Source of the DNA: a virus
Taxonomy: Duplodnaviria > Heunggongvirae > Uroviricota > Caudoviricetes
Strand: one strand, 5' to 3'
Virus record (IMG/VR): IMGVR_UViG_2703718780_000024
Location: 1 to 22,914 of that record
Length of the DNA: 22,914 bases
Under the pieces are notes generated by a model. That model saw only the letters and a program-made list of their open reading frames with translations, searched no databases and was not told the origin of the DNA. The position numbers and the translations under genes were made by a program. Of the stretch, positions 2,794 through 22,727 are shown piece by piece; position 1 is the first letter of the stretch, and every line of letters begins with the position of its first letter.

Positions 2794-5488
2794 TTGCATA
2801 TTCCTTAGCCCAGCGGGGCAGTGATAACGTCTTAATAGCTGGCCATTCATCGGTATTGAGGCAGTCAGCCAGGGTTCGCAGATTGCGGTGATATTCCAGC
2901 TGACCTGCCAGTTTTGCTTCTTCGCCCATCATGAAAATTTCAACCGGATAACGTCCGCATTCAATAGTTGTGCTGGCAACCAGAAAAACGAAAGTTGGCT
3001 GCACTCCAAACTGTGCTTCATAACCGTCACTGTAGAATGCATCCTGAACGTGATAGCGGTAGTCGTAATAAGCGGTTTTGAATCGTTGAATATCCGCCGT
3101 AGTTTTCACGTCCATGATCCAGTGAAATTCAGGGATAATTTTGTCCGGACGGCACCGACACAAAATTGCTGTTTCAGGATCTTCCCAGTAAATTGATGAT
3201 TCAGCGTGTCCGGCGCTTTCAACAAGCCATTGCCCCAGCGGCAAAGCCATAACGCTCTGATACATGAGTTCAATTTTCCGGCCTTCTTCGGCAGTGATAA
3301 CCGTTTTTCCTGTGCTTGCGCATTCCCTCAGAAACGCTTTCTCTTCTTCTTTTCCGGAGTTTGTCCGGCGGTTAAATTCAGGTGCTACGATAAAGCGGTT
3401 ACTGAATTCTTCCGGCTCAAGTACCCGGCAGTGGAAAGCGGTTCCTAAATCGAGCGTTTTTGTCTTTGTGGTGTCCACGGGGGCATTTTTACGCCACAAA
3501 TACAGTGCCGGAGTATCAGCAATGTCATCGAGCTGAGACTTACTGACACCGGGACCCGCGTGGTAATTCTCATTCGAAATTCCGTAATAAATACCTGGCT
3601 CTATGTCTTCTACGATTACGGGATCTGCGACTTCGCCAGTTTCATCACTGCAATCGCGATGCGGATCGCTGCCAGCATTCTCATTGTGCGGATGTTCAGC
3701 GCCTTCCATTTCCTCCGGATCATTTTCCTTAGCTTCAACCTGACTCTCTTCATCGAATGTTTCCTGGTATGTTGCGTCGCCCATCACCGCGCCACAATCA
3801 GGGCAGTTGCCGCCACCACTCTGACCGCAGGCGGTACAGACTTTTTCCTCTTCCTGTTGCGCTACTGGTTCGGATTGTTTCGTTTCTGGCTCGTCTTGTA
3901 ACGCATTTGGGCTGTTTTGTTCCGCTTTTTGGTCGTTCTGTTCCGTTTCTGACTGGTTCTGGTTCACAGAATCGCAGGTTTCAATCCCCTTCACCCATTT
4001 CGGATCATTCGGATCGCTAATCCCTTCAACAAATTCACCACGTGATGCAGCAAGCAATTTATCGGCGTCAGGCTGGCTGATATTGGCTGCCTGCATAATT
4101 TTGTTTACTTCGTCAGCGGTAACTTTTACCGGCTCCGGTTGTACGGAATCTTCAGCGGTATCCACATTTTGCGGTAAGTCCGTGTATGTTCCGTTTTTGC
4201 GGGCAAGATATTCTTCTTTCGTGATTTCAGCAGCCCCGGCAGCCAGCGCCTTGTCCAGACCAGAAAGTTTGTTTGCGCGACCGTATTTTTCGCCATCCTT
4301 GTCGGTGAAGAGGAAGTAGAACGGCCCCTCACGCTCTACAGATGGTTCGACTTCCACTTTGCATTCGGTTTTTTCGTTGTCCGGAATTGCCGTTTCCACT
4401 GCATCAGTTTCTGGTACTGGCGACGAGAGAGTATCAGTTGCGCTCTGATTTCTTCCTTCATCTTCAAACACGCCCTTTGTAGTCAGGTATTCAGTAATGT
4501 ATTTGTTCAGTGCCACAGGGTCTTTGTGAATGTCGATCGGACGTTCACGGACAAGGCCAAAAATAGTCTGGCGGCTGTAGCGAAGCGCATCAGGTTGTTT
4601 GCGCATTGATGCGGAGATGCGCTTCCAGTCTTCGCGATCTCTGGCGATAACTTCATTTTTAGCCCAGCGAAGGATGCTGCCGTCAATGTTTCCGGCATCC
4701 GCATCACCAGGCCAGAGATAGTAGGCCAGCTCCCTGTCCAGGGTTTTCCATGTCTGCTTGTATTCGCGATGAATGGCGGCAGTTACAGGAGGGATTTTTT
4801 CTGCTGGGTTTTCAGTGTGCTGTCGGTTGGCTTTGGCGCGGGCAAGATCAACAACAGACGTGTATTTTCCAGTCTCTTTGCGCTCTGCGTCCTGCCGTTT
4901 TTTCCAGTTACGTAATTCAGCCTGAATTTCGGGCCATTTGGTACCCGGCTTACATTTGTGTTTAACCCATCCGATAGCGAACAGTTTGCGTTCCGGATAC
5001 ATAGCGTTAATTTCAGGCGTTTTCATCAGTGCTTCAACGATATGCCCGTCAAAGGTAGCCACGTCTTCTTGCAGTAATTCCTGCGCGTCAATCGCCATAT
5101 CAACGGTGATGTTTTCACATGTACCGAACTTAACCAGGACCGCGTTCTGTACTTCAAGGGACAGCTTGTCAAAATTGACGTTAATAGGATCGGATTCTGG
5201 TTCGACCGGAATAAAGGAAGCGGATTCCTCATCCCAGCGGTTTTCCTGCATATATTCGGTATCCCAGGAGTCGATAGCAGGGCGGGGCATGCCGGGTTTA
5301 TCTTCGCAGACAAGAAATTTATAAGCGCAGTCCTGAGCAGCAGGATATTGCTCCAGGAATTGCCAGGTAAATTTGGCACGGGCGCGGCGTTCATCACCGG
5401 CTTCAATGGCAGTGGCTACAGCAACTGCGCCCTCTTCTTTTATTGCCTGTTCGTCCGGAATGGCGGCGCAAATAAAGACTTTACTCAT
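2786..5488 (-). CDS. recE: RecE exodeoxyribonuclease VIII, 900 aa
   Basis: Large ORF immediately upstream of and overlapping recT. The C-terminal region ([24 protein letters not shown] ... [10 protein letters not shown]) matches the RecE nuclease domain as recalled. Confidence 0.85.
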
Positions 5489-5958: not shown

Positions 5959-6413
5959 TATCGCGTCCTCAACAATGAATTTTGTGATGCGGTGCCTAGT
6001 GCCTCCAGGTGACGTTAACCAGTTAACAATTAACGCCGGATACAGAGAATCCACCCATAACACTGTTTTTGGTTTTAACTGTTCCGCGTGCGCTGAGCCG
6101 CATTCACCGCATCACAAAATTCACTTTTAAAAAAGGGCGGCAGAGCAGTCACGGAGTAAAACTGATACCGCCAAATGTCACCAGAATATTGATAACAGAG
6201 GGCGTTGTAGCGGGGTTGTCACTTAAGCGTATGGTCAACCTGACAACCCGGTGTCCTCAACTGGGGAAGGAATAACCCCGCCATACTTACCGCCGCGCCA
6301 TTTCGCGGATTGCCACAACCGGAAGCGCACGTTCGAAGAAATCTAACGACAAGCCTTCTAAGGGAAAGAGCTTCGCCGTACGCTTTCGCGTTGTGTGCCT
6401 GCTTTTAACCACG

Positions 6414-17563: not shown

Positions 17564-18163
17564 ATGGCGCATATACAACTGGTCAAACAAACTTCTTCTG
17601 GTTTACTTCTCCCGGCGACGCCGGAGAGTTGCGATTTTCTGCATCAAATCAAAATAGGTGAGTGGATACACGCAGATTTTAAGCGTGTGCGTAACTACGC
17701 ATTCCACAAGCGTTTTTTCAAACTCCTGCAACTGGGATTCGATTACTGGACTCCGGTCGGTGGGGCGATCACGCCTCGCGAACGAGAACTGCTGTCTGGT
17801 TTCGTTGATTACCTGTGCGAATCAGTTGGTCGGGAACACACGCCAGCCCTGAGTGATGCCGCAGAGCAATACCTTAACACCGTTGCGACTCGTAGAACCC
17901 GGGATACGGCGTTGCTAAAGTCGTTTGAGGCTTTCCGCGAGTGGGTAACCATTCAGGCCGGATTTTACACCGAGCATATTTATCCGGACGGTAGCCGTGG
18001 GCGTCGGGCAAAATCCATCGCTTTTGCGAATATGGACGAAGTCGAGTTTCAGCAGGTTTATAAATCTGTACTGAATGTGCTGTGGAACTGGATTCTGTTC
18101 CGTAAATTCTCCTCTCAGGAGGAAGTTGAAAATGTGGCCGCACAACTACTGGAGTTTGCGTAA
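17564..18163 (+). CDS. nin-region phage protein (DUF1367/YdfU-like), 199 aa
   Basis: It lies immediately upstream of the YbcO-like gene with a 1-nt overlap (TAATG). The family assignment is by recollection. Confidence 0.5.
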   Translation: MAHIQLVKQTSSGLLLPATPESCDFLHQIKIGEWIHADFKRVRNYAFHKRFFKLLQLGFDYWTPVGGAITPRERELLSGFVDYLCESVGREHTPALSDAAEQYLNTVATRRTRDTALLKSFEAFREWVTIQAGFYTEHIYPDGSRGRRAKSIAFANMDEVEFQQVYKSVLNVLWNWILFRKFSSQEEVENVAAQLLEFA

Positions 18164-18453
18164 TGGTGAATTTACGTAAAGCGGCTAAAGGCCAGATATG
18201 CCAGATCAGAATCCCTGGCTACTGCAATCACAATCCCGAAACCTCTGTGCTGGCGCATTACAGGCTGGCGGGAACGTGCGGAACAGCGATAAAGCCACAC
18301 GATATGCAGGCAGCGATTGCCTGTAACTCATGCCACGATTTAATCGACGGGAGAGTAAAAACCAGCGATTACACCAAAGAAGAATTGCGCCTGATGCATG
18401 CAGAAGGTGTTTTTCGCACACAAGAGATCTGGAGAAAGGACGGTTATTTATGA
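18163..18453 (+). CDS. ybcO: YbcO-like putative nuclease (DUF1364), 96 aa
   Basis: 96 aa with a conserved Cys/His pattern (CQIRIPGYCNHNPETSVLAH ... CNSCHD), closely resembling DLP12 YbcO as recalled. Confidence 0.75.
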   Translation: MVNLRKAAKGQICQIRIPGYCNHNPETSVLAHYRLAGTCGTAIKPHDMQAAIACNSCHDLIDGRVKTSDYTKEELRLMHAEGVFRTQEIWRKDGYL

Positions 18454-19004
18454 TTTACCCAACGAACACAGGAAAAAGCGGAGAGCACCTTCGTCTCACC
18501 ACGCTGGAAAGTGTCTGGATTCAGGGGAAACTACGTATGTGGGGGCGCTGGTCGTATATTGGCGGCGGTAAGACGGGAAATATGTTCAACCAGTTGCTGA
18601 CCTCTAAAAAGCTGACAAAAACGGCAATTAACGAGGCGCTCCGGAGGATGAAAAAAGCAGGTCTGGACAAACCTAAACTTGAGGCTTTTTTGCGGGATAT
18701 GATCAACGGCAAGCAAAAAAGCTGGCTGGTGCATTGTACCGATTCAGAGGCGTTAATAATCGACAGGGTTATTGGTGAAGTACTGGCAGGTTATCCCGGG
18801 CTGCTCAATGTTCTGAGTCAGCGTTATGTGGGGCGGGGGATGACTAAGCGCAAAATGGCTGAACTGCTGAATGATGCACATCCGGAATGGAGTTTAAGAA
18901 CCTGTGAAAGACGCATTGAGCATTGGCTAAAGGTGGCAGAATTTATTTTGTACAAACCAATGGTTATGGCTTTTGGTATAGAGAAAAAAGTTATTGCTTT
19001 TTGA
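18450..19004 (+). CDS. Putative late-gene antiterminator Q (non-lambda Q family), 184 aa
   Basis: The call rests on position: it is the last gene before the tRNA cluster, coupled by ATGA overlap to the YbcO-like gene. No zinc-finger motif is visible, so the family is uncertain. Confidence 0.45.
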   Translation: MIYPTNTGKSGEHLRLTTLESVWIQGKLRMWGRWSYIGGGKTGNMFNQLLTSKKLTKTAINEALRRMKKAGLDKPKLEAFLRDMINGKQKSWLVHCTDSEALIIDRVIGEVLAGYPGLLNVLSQRYVGRGMTKRKMAELLNDAHPEWSLRTCERRIEHWLKVAEFILYKPMVMAFGIEKKVIAF

Positions 19005-19080
19005 CGTAAAAACTGCTTCAATTCCGGTAAGCTTCGCAAAGCTGTATCGCGAGGCGAACCAAACGCATGAACTTTACCAG

Positions 19081-19105
19081 AACCCGCCATTGAGCGGGTT
19101 TTTTA
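19081..19105 (+). terminator. Rho-independent terminator (possible tR'-like)
   Basis: Stem CCCGC / GCGGG with loop CATTGA, followed by TTTTTT. Confidence 0.55.
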
Positions 19106-19143
19106 TTGCGGAATTAATTACGGACCGTTATTATTCTGCTCCC

Positions 19144-19219
19144 GGCCCTTTAGCTCAGTGGTGAGAGCGAGCGACTCATAATCGCCAGGTCGCTGGTTCA
19201 AATCCAGCAAGGGCCACCA
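19144..19219 (+). tRNA. tRNA with CAU anticodon, most likely tRNA-Ile2 (ileX/ileZ-like); tRNA-Met not excluded
   Basis: 76-nt cloverleaf with acceptor GGCCCTT/AAGGGCC, T-loop TTCAAAT, anticodon loop CTCATAA and encoded CCA. It closely resembles E. coli ileX as recalled. Confidence 0.85.
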
Positions 19220-19319
19220 TCACAAACCGCCATTAGCTTATCAGGAAGAGCAGACGACACCATAACAGGGTTGTTGGTGCGGGGGCGGGTCCCCGATGGC
19301 GGTCCATTATCGGTATTCT

Positions 19320-19396
19320 GCGTTGTTAGCTCAGCCGGACAGAGCAATTGCCTTCTAAGCAATCGGTCAGTGGTTCGACTCCACTACAACGCGCCA
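19320..19396 (+). tRNA. tRNA-Arg (anticodon UCU)
   Basis: 77-nt cloverleaf with acceptor GCGTTGT/ACAACGC, anticodon loop CTTCTAA, T-loop TTCGACT and encoded CCA. Confidence 0.85.
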
Positions 19397-19409
19397 CACT
19401 TATTTTCCA

Positions 19410-19433
19410 GGCTCGCTTCGGCGGGCCTTTTTT
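19410..19433 (+). terminator. Rho-independent terminator after the tRNA cluster
   Basis: Stem GGCTCGC / GCGGGCC with loop TTCG, followed by TTTTTT. Confidence 0.6.
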
Positions 19434-19565
19434 GTATCTGCGCCACGCCCGGCGCATATCAACCACAGAGCCTTTCGGGGGTGAGCTTACGGAGTGGTCA
19501 GTGTGACTTTCTCTGTGGGCAGATCGCTCCCGGGCGTTGGCTCACCCACCCAAAGGAACGTCACG

Positions 19566-19997
19566 ATGTTTGGAATCTTCAAAAAGAAAACCCGCAGAGC
19601 GGCAGCGGAAATTAAAAAGTTTGAGAAACGCGATCTGGCACAGGCGGTGATTAACGCTGCATACCTGGTGGCCTATGCAGATGGTGAATGCGAGGCATCC
19701 GAGAAAGCGAAGATCGAACAGGTCTTACGTAATCAGCCTGCGTTGTCTGCGTTTACCTCGGAAATTAATGCGATTAGCGCAACTATTATCGGTCAGCTGG
19801 ATACCAATTTTAAAATTGGTCGTCGTGCCGCGTTACGCGAGATTGAGGATGTGAAACACGATACGCGTGAAGCGGAAGATGTGCTGGATGTGGCGGTGGC
19901 CATTGCGGAGGCAGACGGCGAAATTGAGCCGGAAGAGCGCAAGGTGCTGGAAGAGATTGCCGGTGTTCTGGGTCTTCGTCTGGAGAATCACCTGTGA
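19566..19997 (+). CDS. TerB-like domain protein, 143 aa from ATG 19566
   Basis: Two ADGE-containing segments (AYADGECEASEKAKIEQVL and AEADGEIEPEERKVLEEIAGVLGL) typical of the TerB fold. AAGGA RBS. Confidence 0.55.
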   Translation: MFGIFKKKTRRAAAEIKKFEKRDLAQAVINAAYLVAYADGECEASEKAKIEQVLRNQPALSAFTSEINAISATIIGQLDTNFKIGRRAALREIEDVKHDTREAEDVLDVAVAIAEADGEIEPEERKVLEEIAGVLGLRLENHL

Positions 19998-20161
19998 CGG
20001 TAAAACTGCGCCTGGCTGTGGCTGCACTCCTGCTGTTTCTGGTGGTGATGGTGGATTTCACCAGCAGAATCATGTCGGTGCTGGCGGATGGGGTGCTGGT
20101 CTGCGGCATTGTGGTATTGCTGTGGCCGGTGATAAAAAGAAACAGCCTGCATAATGCTTGA
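19994..20161 (+). CDS. Possible small membrane protein, 55 aa, GTG start overlapping the TerB-like stop
   Basis: Translation VTVKLRLAVAALLLFLVVMVDFTSRIMSVLADGVLVCGIVVLLWPVIKRNSLHNA, followed by a T-run. No ATG start. Confidence 0.3.
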   Translation: MTVKLRLAVAALLLFLVVMVDFTSRIMSVLADGVLVCGIVVLLWPVIKRNSLHNA

Positions 20162-20474
20162 TTTTTTTGTTTGCTGTTTATTAAAAACACTTCTGCATGG
20201 TGAATCCCCCTGTGCGGAGGGGCGATCAGCAACCAGGTATATGGGATAATCGCGGATTCAGGTGCTGATACTGAATTCACCGGGAGGCACCCGGCACCAT
20301 GCTTTGCCACAAAAGTGTTGTTTCTGTTTTTCTCAAACTATCATCGTTATCCCTTTATTTCCGGCTGCGCATGGCGTGGCCTTTTTTTACGACCAGCCAC
20401 TGGCAGATGGCCATCCTGTAATTTGATTCCGGTTCCGGCTTTTTAACTCTGTTCCTGTACACGGGAGAAATTCG

Positions 20475-22412
20475 ATGTCGATTAAACATTATGATGTTGT
20501 CAGGGCGGCGTCGCCGTCAGACCTTGCGGAAAAGCTGACACAAAAACTGAAGGAGGGGTGGCAGCCATTTGGCAGCCCGGTGGCCATCACGCCTTATACT
20601 CTGATGCAGGCCATTGCGGCGGAAGGTGATGTCACCACACCTGTGTTGGTGAAGCCGTCGGATGGAGAAGGCACAGTAATCAGCGCCACCAGAGACCCGG
20701 AGTATTACTTTGTTGTGGTTCTGGCGGGGCAGTCAAACAGCATGGCATATGGTGAAGGCCTTCCGCTGCCGGAGACATATGACCGTCCGGACCCGCGCAT
20801 TAAGCAGCTGGCGCGTCGCAGTACGGTGACACCGGGCGGTGTCGCCTGTAAATATAACGACATCATTCCGGCGGACCATTGTCTGCATGATGTGCAGGAC
20901 ATGAGCCGCCTTAACCATCCGAAAGCGGACCTGTCAAAGGGGCAGTACGGAACCGTGGGGCAAGGGCTGCATATCGCCAAAAAATTGCTGCCGTTTATAC
21001 CGGCGAATGCGGGCATTCTGCTGGTTCCGTGCTGTCGTGGTGGTTCAGCGTTCACCACCGGAGCCGATGGCACATACAGTGACGCGAGTGGTGCCTCGGA
21101 GAATTCAACCCGCTGGGGTGTGGACAAGCCGCTGTATAAGGACCTTATCGGTCGAACAAAAGCAGCACTGAAGAAGAATCCGAAAAATGTGCTGTTTGCC
21201 GTGGTGTGGATGCAGGGGGAATTTGATTTTGGCGGTACGCCGGCAAATCACGCAGCACAGTTTGGTGCGCTGGTTGATAAATTCCGTGCAGACCTGGCGG
21301 ATATGGCAGGTCAGTGCGTCGGTGGCTCTGCTGGCGGTGTTCCCTGGATATGTGGAGATACGACGTATTTCTGGAAGCAGAAGAACGAATCCACGTACCA
21401 GACGGTGTACGGCAGCTATAAAAACAAAACGGAAAAGAATATCCATTTCGTACCGTTCATGACCGATGAGAACGGGGTGAATGTGCCGACGAACAAACCG
21501 GAAGAAGACCCGGACATTCCGGGTATCGGATATTACGGTTCGAAATGGCGTGACAGCTCAGCCACCTGGACGTCACAGGACAGGGCGAGCCATTTCAGCG
21601 CCTGGGCACGCCGTGGGATTATTTCCGACCGTCTGGCAACGGCGATTTTGCGCCATGCGGGAAGAGTGGCGCTAAACGCGGGGGCATCATCGACAGTATC
21701 AGAGGTGCGCCCTTCATCGCCTTCCGGTGCAGAAGCCACAGGCGTCACAACACTGCTCTCTTACCTTGCCAGCGAGTCAGAGGGAAGCCTGAAAGTACAG
21801 GGATGGTCAGCCAGTGGCGGCAGGGCAGAAGTGGTCAGCGATGCGGAGGGAACCGGAGGTAAGGCAGTGAAGCTGACCAAGGAGGCCGGTAAAAGCAGCT
21901 GGGTGCTGGAGTACGCCGCGGGCAACGGTGCGGCTCTGTTACAGAAAGGGGGGCAGATTCGCTGCCGCTTTAAGGTTTCGGGAGCGCTGGCTGCGAACCA
22001 GTATGTTATGGCGTTTTACTGGCCGGTCTCTTCACTGCCACAGGGCGTTGCCCTGACCGGAGACGGGGGGAATAACCTGCTGGCAGCGTTCTACATCCAG
22101 ACAGATGCAAAAGACCTGAATGTGATGTACCACAATGCGAAAGTGGCGACAAACAACCTGAAACTGGGAACCTTTGGCGCATTTGATAACGAATGGCATA
22201 CGCTGGCTTTCCGCTTTGCCGGGAATAACAGCCTTCAGGTGACGCCGGTTATTGATGGTCAGGATGGCACACCGTTCACGCTGACGCAGTCACCGGTCAG
22301 TGCATTTGCGGCGGATAAACTGCATGTGACAGACATTACCAGGAATGCGACTTACCCGGTACTGATAGACAGCATTGCGGTGGAAGTGAACAGCACAGAC
22401 ACTGCGGCATGA
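20475..22412 (+). CDS. nanS-p: Prophage-encoded NanS-p-type sialate O-acetylesterase (N-terminal DUF1737, SGNH/SASA esterase core, C-terminal lectin-like domain), 645 aa
   Basis: 645 aa with N-terminus MSIKHYDVVRAAS and a GQSN esterase motif (VVVLAGQSNSMAYGEG). Architecture and length match the esterases found downstream of stx in EHEC prophages. Confidence 0.8.
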   Translation: MSIKHYDVVRAASPSDLAEKLTQKLKEGWQPFGSPVAITPYTLMQAIAAEGDVTTPVLVKPSDGEGTVISATRDPEYYFVVVLAGQSNSMAYGEGLPLPETYDRPDPRIKQLARRSTVTPGGVACKYNDIIPADHCLHDVQDMSRLNHPKADLSKGQYGTVGQGLHIAKKLLPFIPANAGILLVPCCRGGSAFTTGADGTYSDASGASENSTRWGVDKPLYKDLIGRTKAALKKNPKNVLFAVVWMQGEFDFGGTPANHAAQFGALVDKFRADLADMAGQCVGGSAGGVPWICGDTTYFWKQKNESTYQTVYGSYKNKTEKNIHFVPFMTDENGVNVPTNKPEEDPDIPGIGYYGSKWRDSSATWTSQDRASHFSAWARRGIISDRLATAILRHAGRVALNAGASSTVSEVRPSSPSGAEATGVTTLLSYLASESEGSLKVQGWSASGGRAEVVSDAEGTGGKAVKLTKEAGKSSWVLEYAAGNGAALLQKGGQIRCRFKVSGALAANQYVMAFYWPVSSLPQGVALTGDGGNNLLAAFYIQTDAKDLNVMYHNAKVATNNLKLGTFGAFDNEWHTLAFRFAGNNSLQVTPVIDGQDGTPFTLTQSPVSAFAADKLHVTDITRNATYPVLIDSIAVEVNSTDTAA

Positions 22413-22547
22413 TAAAAAAAACCGCCAGCGACAGGAATGGACGCTGGCGGTGGTGATACCTATGGAGAAAAAATAAAGGAACGATACTTTCGTACTCTGG
22501 TTTTTAATGAAAACAGTTCTTATTGTCAACAATAACGGAAAGAAATT

Positions 22548-22727
22548 ATGACATTTCTGAACCAGTTAATGCTGTACTTCTGTACGGTGGTCTGTGTGCT
22601 GTATCTCCTTTCGGGTGGGTACAGGGCAGTGCGCGATTGCTGGCGCAGGCAGATTGACAAAAGGGCCGCTGAGAAAATCAGCGCCGGTCAGTCAGCCGGA
22701 AGCAAACCCGAAGAGCCGCTCATTTAG
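22548..22727 (+). CDS. Small hydrophobic-N-terminus protein, 59 aa
   Basis: ORF not in the supplied track; translation MTFLNQLMLYFCTVVCVLYLLSGGYRAVRDC... GGAAAG precedes the ATG. Confidence 0.35.
   Translation: MTFLNQLMLYFCTVVCVLYLLSGGYRAVRDCWRRQIDKRAAEKISAGQSAGSKPEEPLI

Follow-up and report, generated by a model that had tools for sequence, protein, structure and literature searches.

Shiga toxin (Stx)-converting phages such as 933W and WGPS2 carry their toxin genes in a late region with the order Q, pR'/tR', the tRNA genes ileZ, argN and argO, a terminator, the cargo, nanS-p (L0105) and the lysis genes S, R and Rz. Expression of stx2 depends on Q and on induction through the read-through of terminators, as summarized in PMC10042803. 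Here we describe a late region with the same gene order in the IMG/VR record IMGVR_UViG_2703718780_000024 (Caudoviricetes), whose 22,914 nucleotides (nt) are called the window below. From 18450 to 22412 the window holds, in order, a Q-like gene, a tR'-like terminator, tRNA-Ile2(CAU), an argN remnant, tRNA-Arg(UCU), a terminator, tciA, tciB, a small RNA (sRNA) gene with its own terminator, and nanS-p. We consider it probable that this is an stx-type late region in which a widespread accessory pair, tciA-tciB, occupies the slot of stxAB, is made after induction and acts in lytic growth.

Several described systems bear on this pair. In phage P1, from which the gene names come, tciA, tciB and tciC are known by names ("tellurite/colicin resistance/inhibition of cell division") that were assigned by homology only. 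As in the window, the P1 genes are adjacent, start/stop-coupled and flanked by tRNA genes, and the TciB proteins match at 58% over residues 21-51; P1 differs in having the third small gene, tciC, and in that its operon is early (ban) rather than Q-dependent late. The TerB protein of ter operons (terZABCDE; Klebsiella, PDB 2JXU) shares with TciA the PF05099 domain and, in the alignment, two short acidic D-G...E motifs, whereas the gene described here stands without terC, terD, terE and terZ and is partnered with a 55-residue DUF3927 membrane protein. Phage JLK-2012 (JQ347801 / NC_049942), from an O55:H7 strain, is annotated with Q, tRNA-Asn, tRNA-Thr, tRNA-Gly, tciA, tciB, yjhS, S, R and Rz. 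It has the same cargo and the same downstream sRNA/esterase junction, but another Q gene, and its tRNAs are annotated as Asn, Thr and Gly while ARAGORN calls Asn and Gly only. In phage 434, TciB and an esterase follow a Q82-like gene. The Q-tRNA-tciAB-esterase arrangement is already known, being common and annotated in public records.

The flank downstream of the cargo has a counterpart in enteropathogenic and enterohemorrhagic Escherichia coli, where the order PasD/STnc100, esterase, PasA/PasC and holin has been described. In the passages concerned, a 2026 preprint on Pas sRNAs by Zhu, Shabalina & Storz sets out the relationship between STnc100 and PasD and counts TerB among the conserved neighbors of PasA/PasC (bioRxiv 10.64898/2026.05.13.724894). 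The window resembles this arrangement in having an STnc100-family sRNA directly upstream of the esterase gene and an sRNA-like element directly downstream of it. The same passages of the preprint do not discuss TerB in the stx slot.

An exchangeable cassette in the stx position

A preliminary description of the region, drawn from its sequence, had proposed that a Q gene, a terminator, tRNA genes with CAU and UCU anticodons, a second terminator, a cargo slot and a NanS-p esterase gene mirror the late region of Stx phages, with a TerB-like gene where those phages carry stxAB. All of these elements are present, at or beside the places it had given them (Table 1), and two features are added here: the argN remnant, and an STnc100-family sRNA gene with a terminator between the cargo and nanS-p.

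To place the limits of the shared sequence, we used MAFFT alignments with 933W, WGPS2 and phage Evi. A megablast search with positions 18400-20600 matched 390 phage records, mostly Stx-converting, in two blocks, one covering the tRNA genes and the other the sRNA and nanS-p. In the alignments homology begins just upstream of ileZ, the BLAST matches to Stx phages starting at 19104; it spans argO and the terminator behind it and stops near 19441. The sequences of 933W and WGPS2 part from the window at about 19442 and align with it again from about 20185, just past the tciB stop codon and at the start of the STnc100-like element. Because homology breaks at these two points, the exchanged segment comprises about 740 bp (leader, tciA and tciB) and lies where 933W has stx2AB. 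The proposed synteny is borne out by nucleotide alignment on both flanks, only tciAB versus stx2AB differing, and the replacement of stxAB by the TerB-like gene falls between the two homology breaks. Neither a profile search nor the 933W and WGPS2 alignments found stx homology in the cargo slot; since the slot holds tciA and tciB without stx, this is not an Stx phage but a phage built on the same chassis.

The likeness to 933W and WGPS2 extends beyond gene order. An STnc100-like element and nanS-p follow the cargo in each, the STnc100 core lying downstream of stxB in 933W and WGPS2, and in an annotated identical locus (L001) the lysis genes come next. The terminator between the tRNA genes and the cargo is conserved with a 933W feature annotated as "terminator upstream of the stx genes". 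The differences are the cargo itself, a DUF1133-type Q in place of Q933, the decayed argN, and a Q-proximal leader that is unrelated to theirs apart from a similar terminator hairpin. By its sequence relationships the studied region is a mosaic of four modules: Q with its leader and tR', the tRNA genes with their terminator, the cargo, and the sRNA with nanS-p.

A further locus brings the two cargo types into direct comparison. E. coli CUVET21-H2 has a WGPS2-type backbone (Q, DNA methyltransferase, ileZ, argN, argO, esterase, DUF1378 and DUF826) in which tciAB replaces stx2AB, and on sequence comparison its locus is the direct allelic counterpart of the WGPS2 stx2AB locus. Between tciB and the esterase gene, this locus (L014) carries two tandem STnc100-like elements, at about 4290-4440 and 4760-4950, one of the type found with the tciAB cassette and one of the type flanking stx. 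The tandem arrangement looks like the footprint of a cassette exchange by recombination at the element. In the window, the STnc100 element forms the right-hand boundary of the exchangeable cassette, and a possible -35 element (TTGATT, 20159-20164) overlaps the tciB stop codon.

Table 1. Features of the late region and of the two genes that precede it. Coordinates refer to the window; matches to sequence profiles are given in bits.
Feature	Coordinates	Strand	Evidence
DUF1367 gene (Gifsy-2 STM1020-like), first of the DUF1367-YbcO-DUF1133 module	17564..18163	+	PF07105, 326.7 bits
YbcO/DUF1364 putative nuclease gene	18163..18453	+	PF07102, 145.5 bits; DUF1364 protein in the annotation of L001
Q-like late antiterminator candidate, DUF1133 family, 184 amino acids	18450..19004	+	PF06576, 351 bits
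Q-proximal leader, conserved, ending in a tR'-like intrinsic terminator	19005..19108	+	Hairpin 19079-19102 and U-run
Candidate tRNA promoter, TTGCGG-17-TATTAT	19112..19143	+	Aligned with the putative tRNA promoter "pT" of 933W
tRNA with CAU anticodon, ileZ-type tRNA-Ile2	19144..19219	+	ARAGORN; Rfam, 72.5 bits (gathering score 29)
Decayed argN-type tRNA remnant (pseudo-tRNA)	19226..19305 (about)	+	Aligns with 933W argN and Evi tRNA-Lys
tRNA-Arg (UCU), argO-type	19320..19396	+	ARAGORN; Rfam, 67.3 bits (gathering score 29); near-identical to 933W argO
Intrinsic terminator, boundary of tRNA genes and cargo	19409..19436	+	Terminator scan (8-bp stem, 6 GC pairs, T-run); fold
Exchangeable cargo cassette (leader, tciA, tciB)	19442..20180	+	Loss and regain of homology with 933W and WGPS2
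tciA, TerB-family protein, 143 amino acids	19566..19997	+	PF05099, 60.2 bits (cutoff 24.4); PHROG 632, 233.5 bits
tciB, DUF3927 small membrane protein, 55 amino acids	19994..20161	+	PF13064, 62.3 bits; PHROG 1470, 104.4 bits
STnc100/PasD-family sRNA gene	20166..20338	+	Rfam RF02076, 104.7 bits (gathering score 47); full model 1-206
Intrinsic terminator after the STnc100 sRNA	20363..20390	+	Terminator scan; fold
nanS-p, prophage sialate O-acetylesterase, 645 amino acids	20475..22412	+	DUF1737, SASA and DUF6645 domains; GQSN motif at residue 85

The cargo genes tciA and tciB

By profile match TciA is a member of the TerB family, scoring above the curated cutoff of PF05099 and aligning over residues 14-137 with the solved TerB structure (PDB 2jxu, E=4.4e-8), in agreement with the TerB-like assignment first made for it. 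Its identity is 97% to the JLK-2012 protein, 71% to proteins of jumbo Erwinia phages and 42% to that of P1, with 42-43% for P1 or Fostie. The small hydrophobic open reading frame that had been noted to overlap tciA proves to be tciB, a DUF3927 gene whose product has two hydrophobic segments. Its GTG start overlaps the tciA stop by 4 nt (GTGA), and the CTGTGA overlap is retained in lambdoid variants in which TciA identity is only about 43%. The ratio of nonsynonymous to synonymous substitution rates (dN/dS) is 0.03-0.10 for tciA at dS 0.26-0.42, which indicates strong purifying selection, and 0.24-0.43 for tciB, which indicates moderate constraint. Purifying selection and the conserved start/stop overlap together indicate that both genes are functional and probably translationally coupled.

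Existing annotation places the pair among accessory genes. The PHROGs category of both proteins is moron ("moron, auxiliary metabolic gene and host takeover"), and the Prokaryotic Genome Annotation Pipeline (PGAP) names TciA a "tellurite resistance TerB family protein" and TciB a "DUF3927 family protein". No ter-operon gene (terZ, terA, terC, terD or terE) was found in the window or in L001, and PADLOC assigned none of TciA, TciB and the Q-like protein to a defense system. Our literature search found no paper joining nanS-p and TerB. The cassette is common: of 5426 complete E. coli genomes, 790 carry it at a coverage of ≥80%, and genomes with any match have a median of four matching places. 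The 2.2-kb region reaches the same coverage in 521 of the 5426.

The leader of tciA can form a long hairpin at 19468-19543, and the whole 130-nt leader folds at -57.7 kcal/mol (z = -2.3). As a terminator this hairpin was ruled out, since it has no U-run. Among the four sequences compared, three of them nearly identical, it shows one compensatory change and four broken pairs, the sequences being too similar for an analysis of covariation.

Predicted expression after induction and role in lytic growth

Between the Q-like gene and tciA lie two intrinsic terminators, and neither a promoter tool nor a lenient scan found a sigma-70-like promoter in 19400-19570, which includes the 130-nt leader. This arrangement is consistent with Q-dependent, induction-coupled expression of tciAB. 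Unless RNA polymerase has been modified by Q, transcripts from the late promoter would end at tR' (19079-19108), and those from the tRNA promoter would stop at 19409-19436. Because both kinds of transcript are predicted to end upstream, tciAB, along with nanS-p and the lysis genes, would be produced mostly once the prophage is induced and Q allows read-through.

The placement of the pair in other phages is in keeping with such timing. Homologs of TciA were found in 130 phage records. In lambdoid phages of E. coli and Klebsiella, genes for the pair lie between Q-type and lysis genes, behind at least five different Q genes, as seen in JLK-2012, Evi, Fostie, Klebsiella phage 5 LV-2017, pPE4 and L074, and in P1 tciA-tciB-tciC belongs to the C1-repressed ban operon. 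The Q/lysis position in lambdoid phages and the repressed operon in P1 suggest that expression would follow induction or derepression. A TciB homolog directly follows TciA in P1, in the N4-like virulent phages Pollock, FSL SP-058 and FSL SP-076, and in the jumbo Erwinia phage ChrisDB. Virulent phages lack a lysogen that could be converted, so lytic growth is the most likely stage at which the pair serves the phage. We also considered whether tciAB always lies beside lysis genes and rejected this, since N4-like Pollock, like phages of Pseudomonas and Vibrio, has its copy among other genes, mostly of replication or nucleotide metabolism.

These observations also bear on the foremost alternative, in which tciAB is a lysogenic-conversion cassette with its own promoter, active in the repressed prophage, that provides resistance to tellurite, colicins or phages in the manner of the ter operon. 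Membership of TciA in the TerB family and the moron category of the pair speak for such a role, as does the presence of several tciAB copies (median four places) in the genomes of E. coli that makes Shiga toxin (STEC). The adjoining STnc100 sRNA adds to this case, because EDL933 transcribes its STnc100 copies without induction (PMC5331693) and the region is therefore not wholly silent in lysogens. We nevertheless regard conversion as improbable, given that the stretch from the terminator to tciA has no promoter-like site, that terC, terD, terE and terZ are not adjacent, and that strictly virulent N4-like and jumbo phages, for which lysogenic conversion is impossible, have kept the pair. In the ter operon, moreover, TerB by itself is not known to confer resistance.

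Returning to a pair that acts in lytic growth, the proposed mechanism has TciA as a cytoplasmic TerB-fold protein that would be tethered to the inner membrane by TciB. In the ter system, TerB is linked to the membrane protein TerC, and the tethering of TciA by TciB is drawn by analogy with that link. During lytic growth the two proteins may act on an envelope or membrane-linked process, such as tolerance of membrane stress or the exclusion of colicins or superinfecting phages, and TciA would not be a tellurite-resistance determinant of the lysogen.

The tRNA genes and their association with tciAB

The tRNA block preceding the cargo corresponds closely to that of 933W. Its candidate promoter was assigned by sequence reading and the 933W annotation only. 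The CAU tRNA is identical to 933W ileZ in the alignment and is named tRNA-Ile by PGAP in the identical locus, so we take it as tRNA-Ile2 and not tRNA-Met. The argN remnant retains its acceptor ends, while its anticodon and T arms have diverged, and it was called by neither ARAGORN nor Rfam. The same middle position is occupied by tRNA-Arg(UCG) in 933W and by tRNA-Lys(UUU) in phage Evi; with a decayed gene here, the middle tRNA of the block is variable. A search of IMG/VR with a diverse TciA alignment recovered only E. coli prophage copies of 97-100% identity, which were used to survey the forms of the block. Among 60 near-identical loci, the two-tRNA form occurs in 24, three tRNAs in 25, none in 10 and argO alone in one truncated locus. 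Some of these copies contain extra DNA between argO and tciA: an element of the insertion sequence family IS66 in L038 (1497-3913), and an insert of about 600 bp without a Pfam match in L040 (3236-4000) and similar loci.

In several phages tciA-tciB lies within or beside a tRNA cluster, namely P1 (L009, 1616-3276), ChrisDB (L016, 886-3277) and JLK-2012 (L003, 2792-3786); in the Pseudomonas, Vibrio and N4-like phages examined it has no such setting. The clusters raise the alternative that tciAB and the neighboring phage tRNAs form one functional module, for example for protection from, or a response to, tRNA-targeting colicins or host anticodon nucleases. The flanking tRNAs recur in four unrelated settings: Ile2 and Arg in the lambdoid form, those of JLK-2012, Asn and Thr upstream with Ile2 downstream in the same operon in P1, and Trp and Cys upstream with Tyr, Gln, Ile and Met downstream in ChrisDB. 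The lambdoid TciA is also closer to the jumbo-phage proteins (71%) than to those of P1 and Fostie (42-43%), which suggests recent transfer between phage types. Even so, a joint module appears very unlikely: the flanks of 10 among the 60 near-identical prophage loci contain no tRNA; tciA(B) follows Q with no annotated tRNA in Fostie, Klebsiella phage 5 LV-2017 and pPE4; and no tRNA adjoins the gene in Pollock, Pseudomonas AF, PMBT3 or Cygsa01. Clusters of tRNA genes are, furthermore, general hotspots for small accessory genes, and co-location may be incidental. An obligatory link between tRNA genes and tciAB was not borne out, given the tRNA-less loci in the prophage survey and in Fostie, 5 LV-2017, Pseudomonas AF, PMBT3 and Cygsa01.

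The DUF1133 gene as a late antiterminator

The Q-like protein, although assigned first to DUF1133, also matches PF06530 (Phage_antitermQ) at 33.7 bits against a curated cutoff of 26, as well as PHROG 753, "anti-termination protein Q-like". The bona fide PF06530 Q of locus L074 reciprocally matches DUF1133, and the alignment of the Q-like protein with the solved Q21 antiterminator (PDB 6jnx/6p18) is full length, at E=3.6e-4. A DUF1133 gene lies directly upstream of cargo and lysis genes in four phages (the L001 copy, 683R6, 666R9 and pPE4). In a 2021 survey of Stx phages, DUF1133 proteins were treated as Q antiterminators on HHpred evidence (PMC8136144). The gene and about 100 nt of leader are inherited together in phages 683R6 and 666R9, and homology ends at the U-run of the first hairpin. 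On folding, this hairpin (19079-19108) has a 9-bp GC-rich stem followed by UUUUUU, and it shares the AACCCGC...GCGGGTTTTTT form with the post-Q terminator of 933W. The leader is presumed to harbor the predicted pR'/qut.

Several points weigh against the reading of tciAB as Q-dependent late genes that act in lytic growth. The Q role of DUF1133 proteins is based on weak sequence similarity and position alone, and a single-sequence AlphaFold2 model of the protein, with a mean predicted local distance difference test score (pLDDT) of 42.9, was too poor for a fold comparison. No sigma-70 consensus promoter was detected within 18900-19140 by the tool scan or the lenient scan, and pR'/qut was not located; the best pR' candidate pairs TTGACG (19001-19006) with TAAGCT (19028-19033) at an atypical 21-nt spacer. 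Expression data for tciAB were not found, and neither was a functional study of TciA or TciB in lambdoid phages. In P1, tciA, tciB and tciC proved dispensable for plaque formation in a CRISPR interference screen (PMC10695390). Finally, a TerB homolog of Pseudomonas and Vibrio phages lies among replication and nucleotide-metabolism genes, with no annotated TciB neighbor seen, and because of this setting a link to lysis is not general.

That the DUF1133 gene is not the late antiterminator, the hairpins being ordinary operon terminators and the cargo being read from elsewhere, draws on the missing consensus promoter downstream of the gene, on the weakness of the Q21 similarity and on its naming (no NCBIfam family above cutoff and hence no curated model names it, and the PGAP label is DUF1133 protein, nothing more), yet we consider this the least probable of the alternatives in view of the above-cutoff PF06530 match with its reciprocal, the full-length Q21 alignment, the position ahead of cargo and lysis cassette in four phages, the HHpred assignment, and a co-inherited, terminator-ended stretch of about 100 nt downstream of the gene, as expected for a Q-qut-tR' unit.

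Prophage setting and neighboring genes

Chromosomes of E. coli, such as those of strain 2013C-4991 and O157:H7 MB41-1, match the window at 100% identity, and judged from its sequence the window is a lambdoid prophage of an STEC-type E. coli, inserted at the Rac site (ttcA). In L001 the prophage is integrated beside ttcA and carries intR, xisR, ralR, recT, dicB and replication genes, and after the studied region come the holin and lysozyme genes and those for head and tail. Searches against Rfam identified the RalA antitoxin sRNA at 1553-1813 (225 bits), with the ralR locus, and the DicF sRNA at 6135-6186 (77 bits), upstream of dicB; both are typical early-region features of the Rac/Qin type.

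Between the replication genes and the DUF1367-YbcO-Q module, positions 13565-17064 hold an insert of three genes, one on the plus strand for a C5 cytosine DNA methyltransferase and two on the minus strand for a Methyltransf_35 "putative O-methyltransferase" and for a GHKL-type ATPase (HATPase_c_3). PADLOC recognized the methyltransferase alone, and the insert may be a restriction-modification or defense-like moron. The order DUF1367-YbcO-DUF1133 recurs in phages 683R6, 666R9 and pPE4.

Downstream of the cargo, the predicted esterase is a NanS-p family member by its domains, its GQSN motif and its 91% amino acid identity to L0105 of 933W. In a 2026 cryo-electron microscopy preprint on phage phi24B, the DUF1737 N-domain of the NanS-p family is assigned as a capsid-decorating domain (bioRxiv 10.64898/2026.04.10.717836). 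Here this domain spans NanS-p residues 1-55 (20475-20640), and given that assignment nanS-p may count among the structural late genes and not be purely a moron. Convergent with nanS-p lies an sRNA-like gene (22414-22540, -) with the promoter-like sequence TTGACA-17-TAAAAA, about 85 nt and then a GC hairpin followed by a U-run; its match to Esr41 is weak, at 29.5 bits against a gathering score of 102. Judged by its position relative to the arrangement described in bioRxiv 10.64898/2026.05.13.724894, it may be a PasA/PasC-type sRNA. A DUF1378 gene follows at 22548-22727, and in L001 the holin and lysozyme genes come next.

Implications for Stx-type late regions and for TciA-TciB

Through the comparison with 933W and WGPS2, the slot for exchangeable cargo in Stx-type late regions is bounded exactly, by the terminator of the tRNA block and by the STnc100-family sRNA, and in E. 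coli this slot is very often occupied by tciAB. These bounds are useful background for work on the gain and loss of stx cassettes through recombination between conserved flanks, and for the annotation of phages that are related to Stx phages but lack stx. TciA and TciB are abundant, under purifying selection, and present in both temperate and virulent phages, and their function can be addressed by simple genetics.

A broader proposal, which we put forward as a doubtful one, is that TciA-TciB is a conserved module in which a very small membrane anchor accompanies a TerB-fold protein, with a single inner-membrane task in the lytic growth of lambdoid, P1-like, N4-like and jumbo phages. If so, the task could be to keep the infected cell energized and intact until lysis, or to block colicins, superinfecting phages or host defense. 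The recurrent placement in tRNA clusters could then indicate a link to translation or to tRNA-targeting toxins. In STEC prophages, tciAB would be the default occupant of a Q-controlled slot that was later taken over by stx.

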